A stretch of DNA of 43,909 bases from Cyanophyceae cyanobacterium (GTDB lineage: Bacteria > Cyanobacteriota > Cyanobacteriia > Cyanobacteriales > JBHJGN01). Under the pieces are notes generated by a model that saw only the letters and a list, made by a program, of their open reading frames with translations, ran no database searches and had not been told where the DNA came from. The stretch spans positions 1 through 43,909 of the forward strand of contig JBHJGN010000082.1 in assembly GCA_050331735.1 (NCBI GenBank), given 5' to 3'. Positions 1-9,679 of this stretch are shown here, piece after piece. Positions within the stretch are counted from its first letter, which is position 1, and each line of letters begins with the position of its first letter. The position numbers and the translations under genes were made by a program.

Positions 1-417
1 CACCACATTATCTGCTCCACACCTTCGCAGGCGTTCTGTGACGTAGTTTAACGGGATTCCGGTCCGGTCAACAGCTCTCGGATTGCCGTCTGAGGGCATT
101 AGGTAATCTCGGTCTTCAAAACGGATGCCGTGACCGCTGAAAAAAAACCAGAAGTTGTCCCCAGTCCGTAATGGGGGAGACTCAAAAAAGTCCCACAGAA
201 AAGACCAAAGATTCGCATAGGTCGGTCGAGTAGACTGAAGCGAACCGTTGGGAGCCATTAGGTCGGGGGAGTTATCTGAGAAGTGGAATACTTGCTCAAA
301 TCCTGCTTCGGTATGCAAGTAATCTCGCACCAACTCGGCATCCCGCTCAGCATAGCGAAGCGATCGCAATCTATCGTAGCGATTAATGCCAACCACCAGC
401 GCCCAATTTCTCGGCAT
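1..417 (-). CDS. Caspase-family peptidase C14 (orthocaspase/metacaspase-like), N-terminal part; runs off the window edge
   Basis: Manual translation from ATG at 417: MPRNWALVVGINRYDRLRSLRYAERDAELVRDYL...GDNFWFFFSGHGIRFEDRDYLMPSDG...RLRRCGADNVV. It has the C14 motifs ALVVGINxY, L.YA..DA, FFFSGHG (catalytic His) and YLMP.D, and is open to position 1. Not in the ORF track. Confidence 0.9.
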   Translation of the reverse strand, partial: MPRNWALVVGINRYDRLRSLRYAERDAELVRDYLHTEAGFEQVFHFSDNSPDLMAPNGSLQSTRPTYANLWSFLWDFFESPPLRTGDNFWFFFSGHGIRFEDRDYLMPSDGNPRAVDRTGIPLNYVTERLRRCGADNVV

Positions 418-418
418 G

Positions 419-787
419 TTACTCAGTCTGATTCCGCTTGAACTTGAGGGTAATGGCTCCTTTCGCTCCGGCTTTGCCGCCAGTTCCAAGCAGCTTAACT
501 TCTCCTTCTCCGCTAATTTCTACCGATAGCTCTACTTCATCGAGCTGCATCCGTGACTTTTTCTCGGCTTGTGCGTCTGCTCGTTCAAATATTCCGGCAA
601 CGACCTCCAGAAATTCGGTCATGTTGGCCTCTAGCTTCTCGCTACTGACCTGAACGACCGTCTCTGTGACTACCACCCGTTCCGTCTGCCAGGGGTTAGA
701 CAACCCTCTGGATTTATCTCCCTCGACGGCAGTTGTTTCTGCTTCTTCCGTAACAATCCAAATCGATTTAGAGTTAGCTTCTGACAT
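419..787 (-). CDS. Small peptidase-associated protein (Pepco/Trypco-like domain)
   Basis: 122 aa; C-terminal LDEVELSVEISGEGEVKLLGTGGKAGAKGAITLKFKR pattern typical of peptidase-co-occurring domains; stop lies 1 nt before the caspase ATG. Confidence 0.75.
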   Translation of the reverse strand: MSEANSKSIWIVTEEAETTAVEGDKSRGLSNPWQTERVVVTETVVQVSSEKLEANMTEFLEVVAGIFERADAQAEKKSRMQLDEVELSVEISGEGEVKLLGTGGKAGAKGAITLKFKRNQTE

Positions 788-1025
788 GCTGCATTTTTGG
801 TGTTGATTTGACCTTTGGTTCAGCTACTCTTGCTGATTATTGTACGTCACTCTCATCGTTTGGCAGTTGGGTAACTGAGCGATCGCCTTATGTGTACTAC
901 AGGTTCATCAAAGGATATTCCGCATTATTCTCAGAAATATTGATTTCCGAGAAAACTAGGATGACGACAGTTTTGTGCTGTGTTAGAAAGGCGGCATCTA
1001 TTTGGCTCATTCAGACTTGAAAAAC

Positions 1026-2159
1026 ATGAAAATACACCAGCGCCTGAGCGAATGGCTAGAATCTCGTTACTGTGCGCCGGCCTACGGCGGTTGGGTGTTG
1101 ATTGCTATTGCTCTCTGCTTCTTTGGAGCGGCCACCAATACAATGGCGGGCTGGCTCTACGTAATTAGCGGCATCATCCTAGCACTATTGGTGCTGGGGG
1201 CGGTTCTGCCTGTGCGATCGCTCTCTCACCTAAATATCCGCCGCTTCCCAATTGAGCCGGTCAGTGCGGGTCATGAGTTGACAATCGAGCTTGTCCTCGA
1301 AAATTTAACGTCTCAGCCGAAGACGCTTTTCCAGGCTCAAGAGCTGCTGCCGTTCGCGCTCTCAAGACCCAAACCAACAGCAATTGCTGCCATCCCGGCT
1401 CAGGAGACATTTATCTGGAGCTACAGCATCACGGCTCGTCGTCGCGGTATCTATCAATGGCATGAGGTTCAGCTCAGAACAGGAGCACCGCTCGGGCTGT
1501 TTTGGTGTCGTCGGTGCTGGCAGGTTCCGGCAAGAGCCGTTGTCTATCCGAAAATCTTACCCCTCAAACACTGTTCCCTCATCGAGGCTATCGGGAATTC
1601 CCCATCAACTCCGAAACGTTACCAAGCTGCCACTGAGGGCTTAACCAAGGGATTGCGCCCCTATCGTCATGGGGATTCGATTCGTCTGGTGGCGTGGCGA
1701 AGGAGCGCTCGTTTCGATCAGCTTCAGGTCCGGGAACTGGAGGTCATGACAGGAGGACAGGAAGTCGCGATCTGCCTGGACTGTCAATCCCCTTGGCAAG
1801 CAGACGCTTTTGAGCAAGCCGTGATTGCCGCTGCTTCGCTCTACTGCTACGCCAGTCGTCGTCAGGCGAATGCAAAACTGTGGACGGCTGACAGCGGTCT
1901 CCTTCAGGGTGATAGAGCGGTGCTAGAAACGTTAGCCGCCGCTGCACCAACCCCAGAGGCGATCGCCTCTATTCCTGCTGCTCCCTTGGTCTGGCTCACC
2001 TCCAGTGTTGCCTCGCTTCACTCTCTCCCGGCTGGTAGTCAAGGGGTACTCTTCCCCTCCTCTCCTCGGCTAGAGCCGCTACCGTGTCCTACTTTAGTGA
2101 TCGATTCAGGTCAGCCTCTCCAACAACAGTTACAGCAAGAATTAGAAGCGAGAGTTTAG
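1026..2159 (+). CDS. DUF58 domain-containing membrane protein
   Basis: N-terminal TM hairpin, RRGIYQW..V.LRT.APLGLF, LRPYRHGDSIRLVAWRRSAR and FEQAVIAAASL motifs; ATG at 1026 preferred over TTG at 1002. Confidence 0.85.
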   Translation: MKIHQRLSEWLESRYCAPAYGGWVLIAIALCFFGAATNTMAGWLYVISGIILALLVLGAVLPVRSLSHLNIRRFPIEPVSAGHELTIELVLENLTSQPKTLFQAQELLPFALSRPKPTAIAAIPAQETFIWSYSITARRRGIYQWHEVQLRTGAPLGLFWCRRCWQVPARAVVYPKILPLKHCSLIEAIGNSPSTPKRYQAATEGLTKGLRPYRHGDSIRLVAWRRSARFDQLQVRELEVMTGGQEVAICLDCQSPWQADAFEQAVIAAASLYCYASRRQANAKLWTADSGLLQGDRAVLETLAAAAPTPEAIASIPAAPLVWLTSSVASLHSLPAGSQGVLFPSSPRLEPLPCPTLVIDSGQPLQQQLQQELEARV

Positions 2160-6957: not shown

Positions 6958-8085
6958 CTAGTACTGATAAAGCGTCCGGCGCTCCCGATCCGGGCGACCG
7001 AGGGAGCGAATGGTCTGCTGAAGCGTGGACACCTCCATACAGGTGCCTCCCTGCGCTCCGGCCATGGTGGTGATGTGTTCTTCCATTAAGGTGCCGCCCA
7101 GGTCGTTACAGCCCCACTGTAGAGCTGCTGTGGCTCCTTCTAACCCGAGCTTGACCCAGCTAGGCTGATGATTGGGAATCCACTGGCCGAGAAAGATTCT
7201 TGCTACTGCCGTCAGCAGTAGAGCATCTGCCAACACGGGCTGATCGCGGCCAACTCGACGGCGTAAGGGGGCCGGGGCTTCTTGTCCGACGAAGGGCAGT
7301 AAAATAAATTCGGTAATTCTGGCGGGATAACCGCGAGCGATCGCCGTTTTTTGCAGCGATCGCAGCTTTGCTAAATGAGCAATCTGCTGCTTAGGAGTTT
7401 CGATGTGCCCAGACATCATGGTGCTAGTGGTGTACATCCCGACGCTATGGGCAATACCAACAATTTCTAACCAGGTAGCGGTATCAAGTTTTTCTGGACA
7501 AATCACCCGCCGGACGCGGTCGTCGAGCACTTCGGCGGCGGTTCCCGGTAGCGACCCCACTCCTGCTGCCTTCAGCGCCACAATCACGTCTCGATAGCTG
7601 ATGCCATCTTCTCTGGCGATGAACTGGACTTCCTGGGGAGAGAAAGCGTGGAGGTGAAGCTGGGGATAGTCCTGTTTGATTGTTTCTACTAGCCGAAGAT
7701 AGTAGGCTAAAGCGGAGCCGTTGAGCTTGGCTGCTGGGTTTAATCCTCCCTGCATACAGATTTCTGTCGCATCTCGACTGACGGCATCGGCAACTTTTTC
7801 CAGGATTTGAGCGCTATCGAGCCAAAAGGCTCCGGCTTCCCCTTCGTCCCGGCGAAACGCACAGAAGCTACAGTGCTGTTCGCAGATGTTGGTGAAGTTG
7901 ATGTTGCGATTAACAACGTAGGTTACGGTATCGCCCACCTGTTGCTGTCGCAGGCGATCGGCAGTATAACGGATCGCTGTAAGGTTATCAGGCTGCTGTA
8001 GCAGGGCGACTCCCTCGGCTTCTGAAAGTTCTTCTCCTGCTAAGGCACGCTCTAAAATAGCGTCAGTCGTTATTTCCACCGTCAT
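6958..8085 (-). CDS. cofH: 7,8-didemethyl-8-hydroxy-5-deazariboflavin (FO) synthase subunit CofH
   Basis: [23 protein letters not shown] radical SAM motif, [40 protein letters not shown]. Confidence 0.92.
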
Positions 8086-9679
8086 GAGTGTTAAAAATTA
8101 CCAGTTGCCGTTACTGACCATTGTAGCTGGAGTGCTGTTTACCCTCTATCTGCATAGTCAAATTCCTGACGGAGTTTATTTTAGTGGCGATGCTGGTTTA
8201 AAAGCGTTATTGGCCCAGCAGCTTAGTACAGAGGTGCGCTTTGACTTGATTCCTCCGGAAGAAACATGGATAAGGACTCTCTGGAACGAGGGGCTATATC
8301 CTTACGCAGAACCATTTGTTTATCATGTTGCAAACCGCTACTACATTACGTTTCCGTTCACGTTTCCGCTGCTCACGGCTCCTTTTTATGCTCTGTTTGG
8401 CTACCGAGGACTATACGTGGTTCCCCTCATCGCTCTCTGGGCCACTTGGCTGGTATTCTACTGGATGTGCCGCCGTCTTCAGCTCCGTGGAGTCTATGCG
8501 GCGATCGCCCTAGTCAGCCTCATTTTTGCGTCGCCGCTCACGCTCTACAGCGCCATGTATTGGGAGCATACTCTTGCTGTCGGCCTGTGTTTAGCGGGTT
8601 TAGCCCTGCTGCTGACAGATTTGACACGCTTATCAATCTGGAGAGCGGTTTCCAGTGGAGTGTTAATTGGTTTATCGGTGTGGTTCCGACCCGAATTTCT
8701 CTGTCTTGCCGCACTGTTAACTCTCGGGTTCTATGTAATCCCGTTACTAGATAAAATTGGACTCCGAAAATCGTCTCTAGCACAATACAGAGTCGATCAT
8801 AGAACCTTACTAGTCGCCAGTTTATTTGTCACTATCGGTCTATTTTTCATCTTTAATAAAATTATTTATGGTTATGCTTTAGGCATTCACTCAATTCAAA
8901 TAGTTGAGGAAGTAAGCTTGTTGCAAAAGCTCAAAGATGCCTGGAATAACTTTCGGGGACTAAGCTGGGCATACTTTGAGTTTTTCCCAATAGCGTCATA
9001 TTCAATTCTGTATGTTTTTTATGGCTTTTTTAGTAAAAAATTCAAAATTACTTTTGAAGTAGTTGCCGCCTATTTATTCTGGCTATTGTTTACCATTGGG
9101 GTCTCGATAATTGTTCCCGTAGGAACAGCAGGTCTCATTGCCGGAGGTAAGCAATGGGGACCAAGGTTCTTATTAATCTTAGTGCCAATAGTTTCTCTGC
9201 TTACTGTTGTAGAACTAGCAAGCATTGTTGGCAAGCTCCGCCGTACCAAAAAATATTTCAGCACCGGACTGATTTCTGTACTTCTCGTGATTGGAGTTTA
9301 TCAAAATACTATTTTAGGGACTAAATATCTCCAAAAAAATTACCAAGAAGTCGTTCCTGTTCTTCGATTTCTACAGCAGAATAACGACAAAATTGTGGCC
9401 GTTTCCCATCAGTTTGTTGCTCAAGTTCTAGAAGCCTCTATTGCTGAAAAATTATTTCTAACAGTTGATGATAAGCAAGATTTAGCGAAGCTAAGTATAG
9501 CTTTAGCGGCCCGGGAAAAGCAACAATTTGTTTATATCTGTTATCCCTTCCGTCCCTGCCCACTTCCGCAAGAAATCTCGGACAATTTTGAAGAAAATCG
9601 ACACATCGGCACTCGCTTTATTTTCTTAGGCGAGCTAGGAAAATATTCGGTTTATAAAGGGTCTCTTATTGAAAAATAA
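8084..9679 (+). CDS. Polytopic membrane glycosyltransferase (GT-C/PMT-like)
   Basis: About 12 hydrophobic segments; first loop [21 protein letters not shown] and QWGPRFLL motifs typical of ArnT/PMT-like GT-C folds. Confidence 0.65.

Follow-up and report, generated by a model that had tools for sequence, protein, structure and literature searches.

Filamentous and mat-forming cyanobacteria are rich in orthocaspases. These proteases have for many years been associated with programmed cell death, and we know of no orthocaspase substrate in this process. What, then, is the significance of a caspase-type gene that starts a single nucleotide behind the gene of a small protein? The question is raised by the left end of contig JBHJGN010000082.1 (C82) in a cyanobacterial genome of 99 contigs and 5.57 Mb; the first 43,909 bases of this contig are the stretch analysed here (the window). 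An original prediction, made from the letters of the window, had read the two genes as a Pepco-like protein coupled to a caspase-family peptidase, with the small protein acting as substrate, activator or oligomerising effector of the protease. We find that the locus is almost certainly a member of the Pepco-protease kind of module, and we consider it likely that it acts by cell death through a Pepco pore that the caspase licenses.

A Pepco gene is followed directly by a Peptidase_C14 gene

The upstream gene encodes 122 residues that end in a Gly-rich β-hairpin (...VKLLGTGGKAGAKGAITLKFKRNQTE). This protein matched the Pfam family Pepco (PF24393) at E 4.9e-34 (117.6 bits, cut-off 27) through its residues 9–118, which correspond to profile positions 1–112 of 112 and thus to a full-length Pepco domain; a profile search found no second Pepco match in this genome, and neither PADLOC nor NCBIfam gave a match for the protein. 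The match to the related family Trypco1 (PF19493) stayed below threshold (16.4 bits vs a cut-off of 24.6), yet Trypco1 can be aligned along the whole length of Pepco (TFLVEVDE/IWIVTEE, ADEVEVKFG/LDEVELSVE and ITLKWK/ITLKFKR, Trypco1/Pepco). Our Pepco is related to Trypco1, yet not a member of it.

The second open reading frame (ORF) begins one nucleotide behind the Pepco stop codon (TAA-C-ATG), a spacing compatible with translational coupling of the two genes, which are probably coupled in this way. The 139 residues that it encodes before leaving the window matched Peptidase_C14 (PF00656; E 2.1e-11, 44.4 bits, cut-off 21.4) over profile positions 1–102 of 233, as well as the PADLOC ‘caspase’ model PDLC02987 (E 3.8e-13); the NCBIfam model NF047832 (‘caspase, EACC1-associated type’) reached 30.5 bits vs a cut-off of 140 with this 139-residue fragment. 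The catalytic His (His96) is intact within FFFSGHG. The original prediction is thus upheld in its reading of both frames, of the one-nucleotide spacing and of the SGHG motif, and also in placing the catalytic Cys outside the window, as the frame runs off at base 1 ahead of the Cys motif.

The pairing is conserved among Pepco relatives

In a scan of one genome per species, Pepco relatives were found in 120 stretches, from which the best 80 loci were kept. Nearly all of these are cyanobacterial, the exceptions being two from Rhizobium, one from a Chloroflexaceae metagenome-assembled genome (MAG) and one from an unclassified MAG. Caspase domains then served as tblastn queries to place C14 relative to Pepco at each of the 80 loci; C14 sequence was found directly downstream of Pepco in 52/80 (a full domain on the same strand in 44, a fragment only in 8) and within about 6 kb in 67/80, the other arrangements being C14 upstream on the same strand (11 loci), C14 nearby on the opposite strand (3) and a fused remnant (1). 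The distance from the Pepco stop to the caspase start lay between -10 and +30 nt at 38 of these 44 full-domain loci. Pfam searches gave the same picture: where an intact Pepco ORF was present (77 loci), 47 ORFs of at least 150 residues lie downstream of it, and 44 of them have Peptidase_C14 at the N-terminus. Homologues are therefore kept next to peptidases, as had been anticipated.

Most of the 44 full-length partners carry a further domain fused C-terminally to the caspase, namely FGE-sulfatase (23/44), GUN4 (7/44), SAVED (3/44), Amidase_3 (3/44), a transglycosylase with or without a transpeptidase (2/44) or RDD (1/44), and 5/44 have none. The SAVED fusions (PF18145, E 5e-38) follow Pepco in Microcoleus (L020:6383-8152, L021:5333-7108 and L022:6383-8158), and their domain composition suggests a version of the module that would be triggered by cyclic oligonucleotides; we found no mention of a caspase-SAVED fusion in the literature consulted. 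The wall-enzyme and membrane fusions (Transgly with or without Transpeptidase in L047 and L049, Amidase_3 in L059, L060 and L068, RDD in L015) may act as sensors directed at the wall or as additional effectors.

Gene order is reversed, with the caspase upstream on the same strand, in L016, L018, L026, L029, L033, L035, L044, L048, L052, L083 and L085; FGE-like sequence follows the caspase in most of them, and L083 and L085 are the Rhizobium members. At L078 (2817-3335) one ORF combines a caspase-like N-terminus, which includes the His region (...LWFFFAGHGIR...), with the C-terminal half of a Pepco, and it looks like a deletion remnant of a Pepco-caspase pair. Across the order to which our genome belongs, Pepco was present in 8 of 40 other genomes, some with several copies, and such a patchy distribution is typical of accessory or defence genes.

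The caspase gene continues beyond the contig end

Because the window begins at the first base of C82, the caspase gene is cut off by the contig end, and its relatives indicate what should follow. The fragment is 34–65% identical to the 44 Pepco-adjacent caspases and ends in ...GADNVV, where the aligned relatives read GADNV[VIA], three hydrophobic positions and then, in 42/44, DACR, in agreement with the motif that the original prediction had named. The Cys motif would thus be expected within six residues past the contig end. The catalytic Cys is kept in 43/44 Pepco-linked caspases (42 with DACR, one with DMCR), the remaining one being degenerate. FGE-sulfatase is the most likely missing C-terminal domain, since it is carried by the closest relatives, L009 (65% identical) and L007 (57%); L006, also 57% identical, has no fused domain.

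The remainder of the gene was sought at other places in the assembly and in public collections. When k-mers from the head of the window were compared across the 99 contigs, the only overlap was a chance 15-mer inside a non-ribosomal peptide synthetase gene on C4; tblastn with the C-terminal regions of those Pepco-linked relatives that exceed 200 residues (42 of the 44) found no continuation at any contig end of this genome; and a motif scan of all contig ends for the caspase remainder gave one unrelated match, on C95. In a collection of 5.8 billion proteins, searched at lengths of 76–244 residues, there was no identical caspase fragment, the best non-self match having 74% identity, and the first 40 bases of the window, searched as an exact 40-mer, had 0 matches among JGI metagenome contigs. 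Two further Peptidase_C14 genes were noted in this genome (C47:6914-7693 and C27:15345-15965, in frames of 769 and 1743 residues), both of them devoid of a nearby Pepco match.

One public run contains the stretch; it is a stromatolite metagenome that is possibly the source sample and hence not independent, and no RNA data set was listed as containing the stretch. A 479-nt contig derived from the reads of this run covers window positions 1–141 with its bases 339–479; the sequence therefore extends at least 338 nt further to the left of the window, and no loose ends were reported. The same run holds a second, minor strain with roughly one quarter of the depth; strain variation is a plain and sufficient reason for the assembly to break inside the caspase gene. 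In the caspase part (window 112–253, 142 nt) the minor strain differs by 8 single-nucleotide polymorphisms (SNPs), 7 of them synonymous, and in Pepco (window 524–772, 249 nt) by 11 SNPs, 8 of them synonymous, in addition to an in-frame 6-nt insertion behind position 655 that is the sole indel across both genes. Synonymous changes between the two co-occurring strains thus amount to 15/19 for both genes together, so that both are under purifying selection, and the variation fits two expressed, selected genes.

Likeness to the Streptomyces Pepco-trypsin pair and a proposed mechanism

A precedent for such a module is SsPepco-SsAvs4 of Streptomyces subrutilus. As described by Evans et al. (bioRxiv 10.1101/2025.11.14.688446), SsPepco forms β-barrels of 9–10 copies that resist heat and sodium dodecyl sulphate, and the trypsin domain of Avs4 cuts it after Ile97, which removes a C-terminal tail of ~2 kDa and ~20 residues. 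SsPepco ending exactly at Ile97 kills Escherichia coli, toxicity requires both SsPepco and the catalytic Ser of the protease, and an amphipathic helix is also needed for it. The same preprint lists cyanobacterial Pepco-protease pairs with FGE sensors; we found no other relevant paper in the literature on Pepco with caspases or peptidases. The module type, including its cyanobacterial FGE-linked forms, is therefore already published, and from what Evans et al. report it is explained experimentally for the serine-protease relative.

Akin to SsPepco-SsAvs4, the small Pepco-type protein is here encoded immediately upstream of a protease, which is fused to a sensor in SsAvs4 and in the relatives of our caspase, and, going by the published description of SsPepco, both small proteins have one or more N-terminal strands, a helix and a C-terminal hairpin. 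That the small protein would be substrate or oligomerising effector of the protease, as originally predicted, is in keeping with this precedent. The two pairs differ in that the partner is a C14 caspase here and a trypsin-like Avs4/STAND protein there. The Pepcos differ too: ours belongs to PF24393 with a merely sub-threshold Trypco1 match, has an additional hairpin at the N-terminus, whose loop carries G-x-R/K, and lacks the charged, Pro-rich tail of ~20 residues, having 4 residues after R118.

Other known systems show parts of the same arrangement. Trypco1 and Trypco2 were described as trypsin-co-occurring domains of conflict systems dependent on nucleoside triphosphates (Kaur et al., 2020, PMC7159879), and their pairs with trypsin in vWA-MoxR (VMAP) ternary and STAND systems resemble ours in that a small domain co-occurs with a peptidase. 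In that account Trypco goes with trypsin and caspases go with α/β-hydrolases, whereas here a caspase is paired with Pepco. Our genome also has a locus of the former kind (L121, C37:58061-61351), where a 105-residue Trypco1 gene is followed by a Trypsin_2-VMAP-M1-VMAP-C gene, with one FGE-sulfatase gene just upstream and two more nearby. A Trypco1 subgroup was also seen in divergent orientation beside Peptidase_C14-nSTAND1 genes rather than trypsin (L117, L118, L120, L122 and L124), and the N-terminal loops of these five proteins all read K-G followed by a hydrophobic residue. EACC1-caspase and bacterial gasdermin-protease pairs are similar in that a membrane pore is set free by a caspase-like protease encoded next to it (Evans et al.); EACC1 and gasdermin have no sequence relationship to Pepco, and they form their assemblies once they have been cut, whereas Pepco reportedly exists as an assembly beforehand.

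The caspase itself resembles cyanobacterial orthocaspases such as MaOC1 of Microcystis aeruginosa (Klemencic et al., 2015, cited in PMC6426788), with what appears to be an N-terminal p20-type C14 domain and with the His in SGHG, and its relatives share FGE-sulfatase or GUN4 C-termini with the orthocaspases surveyed there. According to that survey (PMC6426788), orthocaspases have an H-C dyad, cleave after positively charged residues and are separated from metacaspases by the absence of a p10 domain; it treats them as stand-alone proteases with unknown substrates. Unlike a stand-alone orthocaspase, ours has an upstream Pepco that supplies a candidate natural substrate.

In light of these likenesses, we propose that Pepco and the orthocaspase would be produced from one transcript, probably with translational coupling, and that Pepco, a small non-enzymatic protein, would self-assemble into a latent oligomeric β-barrel by homology with the Streptomyces protein. 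The orthocaspase would be a His-Cys peptidase with P1 Arg/Lys specificity and a C-terminal sensor, which in the relatives is mostly FGE-sulfatase/C-type-lectin-like and, in second place, GUN4. When the sensor fires on its trigger, presumably phage infection or another insult, the activated caspase would make one specific cut in each Pepco monomer, and the cut barrel would turn membrane-permeabilising and kill the cell, as abortive infection or as regulated cell death.

Several points weigh against this mechanism. The only Pepco tested experimentally pairs with the trypsin-like Avs4 in the work of Evans et al. (bioRxiv 10.1101/2025.11.14.688446), and our Pepco lacks the ~2-kDa C-terminal tail of that serine-protease-linked prototype. 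The caspase sequence in this assembly ends ahead of the catalytic Cys and of all further C-terminal parts, so that an intact, sensor-bearing protease is a prediction. No C14 was found within about 6 kb at 13/80 of the related Pepco loci, and the neighbours of the pair in the window are housekeeping genes and no defence island. As to an amphipathic segment, the helical moment maximum of our Pepco (0.43) was not above that of shuffled sequences, 61% of which reach it, and its β moment maximum (0.86) was reached by 18% of shuffles.

The Pepco fold, its short tail and alternative readings

An AlphaFold2 monomer model, built on an alignment of 74 sequences (our Pepco and 73 relatives), had a mean predicted local distance difference test (pLDDT) score of 73.5 and a predicted template modelling (pTM) score of 0.55. 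It contains an N-terminal β-hairpin of strands 8–20 and 36–48 with a G23-x-K25 loop between them, then a long helix (49–78) and a Gly-rich C-terminal hairpin (80–99 and 112–118). Confidence is lowest in this loop, block 21–30 having a mean pLDDT of 50 and residues 29–34 values below 50. Residues L82-D-E-V-E-L-S-V-E90, G95, G110 and F116 are invariant in this alignment. A homo-oligomer prediction with four Pepco copies, based on our alignment, scored 0.27 and 0.18 vs a mark of 0.42, which speaks neither for nor against oligomerisation. Neither Foldseek (no match to the Protein Data Bank, PDB, at E 0.001 or better) nor VIA-align wide (best Z 4.4, none of at least 5) matched the monomer model to a known structure, and a sequence search of the PDB with Pepco gave nothing below E 0.03; the absence of a solved structural relative does not establish a new fold.

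A second alignment of 78 sequences comprised our Pepco and 77 locus ORFs (3 loci lacking an intact ORF were omitted, two partial ORFs included). After the F-K-R of the last strand, one residue follows in 30/78 and six or fewer in 75/78; our Pepco has 4 after F116-K-R118. Tails longer than 7 residues occur in 3/78 only, namely in the two Rhizobium Pepcos L083 and L085 (23 residues each) and in L017 (12 residues). Since nearly all of these sequences, ours included, are almost tail-less, the published activation by tail removal cannot transfer unchanged, and the cleavage site of caspase-linked Pepcos may, by these alignments, differ from the published one. The alignment also brought out the loop of the N-terminal hairpin: position 23 (numbering of our protein) is G in 73/78 and position 25 is R in 72 and K in 5, so that a near-invariant G-x-R/K motif sits in an otherwise variable N-terminal region. 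Our protein has G23-D-K25 there, followed by R27.

With these features in mind, we put forward tentatively, at somewhat less than even chances, that the caspase-linked cyanobacterial Pepcos are a mechanistic variant in which the orthocaspase cuts the G-x-R/K loop or trims the 1–6 residues that follow K-F-K-R. Taken as an account of the present locus, the module would be the same and its licensing different: a cut after the basic residue of the G-x-R/K motif would free an inhibitory N-terminal strand, or the few residues after K-F-K-R would be trimmed, and in this form we hold it to be rather unlikely. It is not exclusive of the caspase-licensed pore set out above. The conservation of the motif, its position between the two strands where the model is least confident, and the very short tail after position 118 all speak for such a cut, as do the cleavage after basic residues reported for orthocaspases (PMC6426788) and the statement of Evans et al. 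that refers the conserved Ile to Pepcos ‘associated with serine proteases’. Cyanobacterial trypsin-linked Trypco1 proteins, however, are likewise short-tailed and carry a basic residue in the same loop, which is thus not specific to caspases; because of this the G-x-R/K motif does not discriminate between partner types, and the basic loop residue was dropped as a marker of caspase partners. A further point on the other side is I112 (Ile or Met in relatives), which stands 10 residues before the C-terminal end and may correspond to the published Ile97, so that a shorter C-terminal cut at this residue could be the counterpart of the published one.

An improbable alternative is that Pepco is an adaptor, activator or scaffold that gathers caspases, and that the caspase kills by broad proteolysis or through a fused enzymatic domain. 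Caspases are typically activated by proximity, and the Amidase_3 (3/44) or transglycosylase (2/44) domains fused to some relatives could damage the wall themselves; an effector-less caspase-like protease is moreover reported to protect E. coli (Evans et al., bioRxiv 10.1101/2025.11.14.688446). According to the same source, however, truncated SsPepco alone kills E. coli, and a nuclease put in place of the Pepco-protease pair restores toxicity, findings that favour Pepco as the effector. The hairpin core LDEVELSVE, invariant in 74/74 sequences, likewise fits a structural, barrel-forming role.

It is very improbable that a real break at or close to the contig end, caused for instance by a mobile element, has destroyed the caspase and left Pepco an orphan. 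In favour of this reading, the gene is interrupted in the assembly with no continuation on another contig, and decayed caspases do exist beside Pepco (the fragment-only loci, 8/80, and the fused remnant L078). Against it, the read-derived contig carries on for 338 nt past the window with no loose ends reported, 7/8 SNPs in the caspase part are synonymous, and strain variation, with the minor strain at roughly one quarter of the depth, suffices to explain the break.

Surroundings of the locus

The coordinates of the gene pair and of its nearest neighbour are collected in Table 1. On the assembled side the pair is accompanied by DUF58-like, PEP-CTERM, LmeA-like, UDP-glucose dehydrogenase and epimerase genes, and no MoxR, vWA or STAND gene was found on that side. 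A promoter and terminator scan of positions 1–1200 gave the same counts as shuffled sequence; it returned a single sigma-70-like site on the minus strand (866..839), vs 1.1 expected in shuffles. Further along the window, two radical-SAM genes flank a 531-residue ORF (8084-9676, plus strand), for which Pfam gave no family at E 0.001 or better. With a link to a diversity-generating retroelement in mind, we note that the sole RVT_1 match in this genome is on C26, near the contig start.

Table 1. Position of the Pepco-caspase pair and adjoining features in the window
Feature	Position	Strand	Remarks
Peptidase_C14 / orthocaspase gene, 5′ part	1..417	minus	codons 1–139; still open at base 1
Catalytic His96 codon (in FFFSGHG)	132..130	minus	from the caspase translation
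Gene junction TAA-C-ATG	415..421	minus	spacer base C418; caspase ATG 417..415
Pepco gene	419..787	minus	122 codons; ATG at 787, TAA stop at 421..419
Intergenic stretch from the Pepco start to the divergent DUF58-like gene	788..1001		presumed to hold the promoter of the pair
DUF58-like gene	1002..2159	plus	ORF map and DUF58 match

Implications for orthocaspases and cyanobacterial cell death

The value of the window is mainly one of annotation, in that a stromatolite cyanobacterium is added to a known module family. What appears to be new, as judged from the sequences compared here, is the caspase-linked branch with its tail-less C-terminus, its G-x-R loop and the wide range of domains fused to its caspases, a branch to which the published activation site does not obviously apply. 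The tight and conserved pairing with Pepco provides a concrete candidate for both the substrate and the executioner of orthocaspases. If the variant cleavage at the loop or behind K-F-K-R were true, it would name the first natural substrate and the first cleavage site for cyanobacterial orthocaspases. The varied domains fused to the caspases (FGE/lectin-like, GUN4, SAVED and wall enzymes) point to many triggers that would converge on one death switch.

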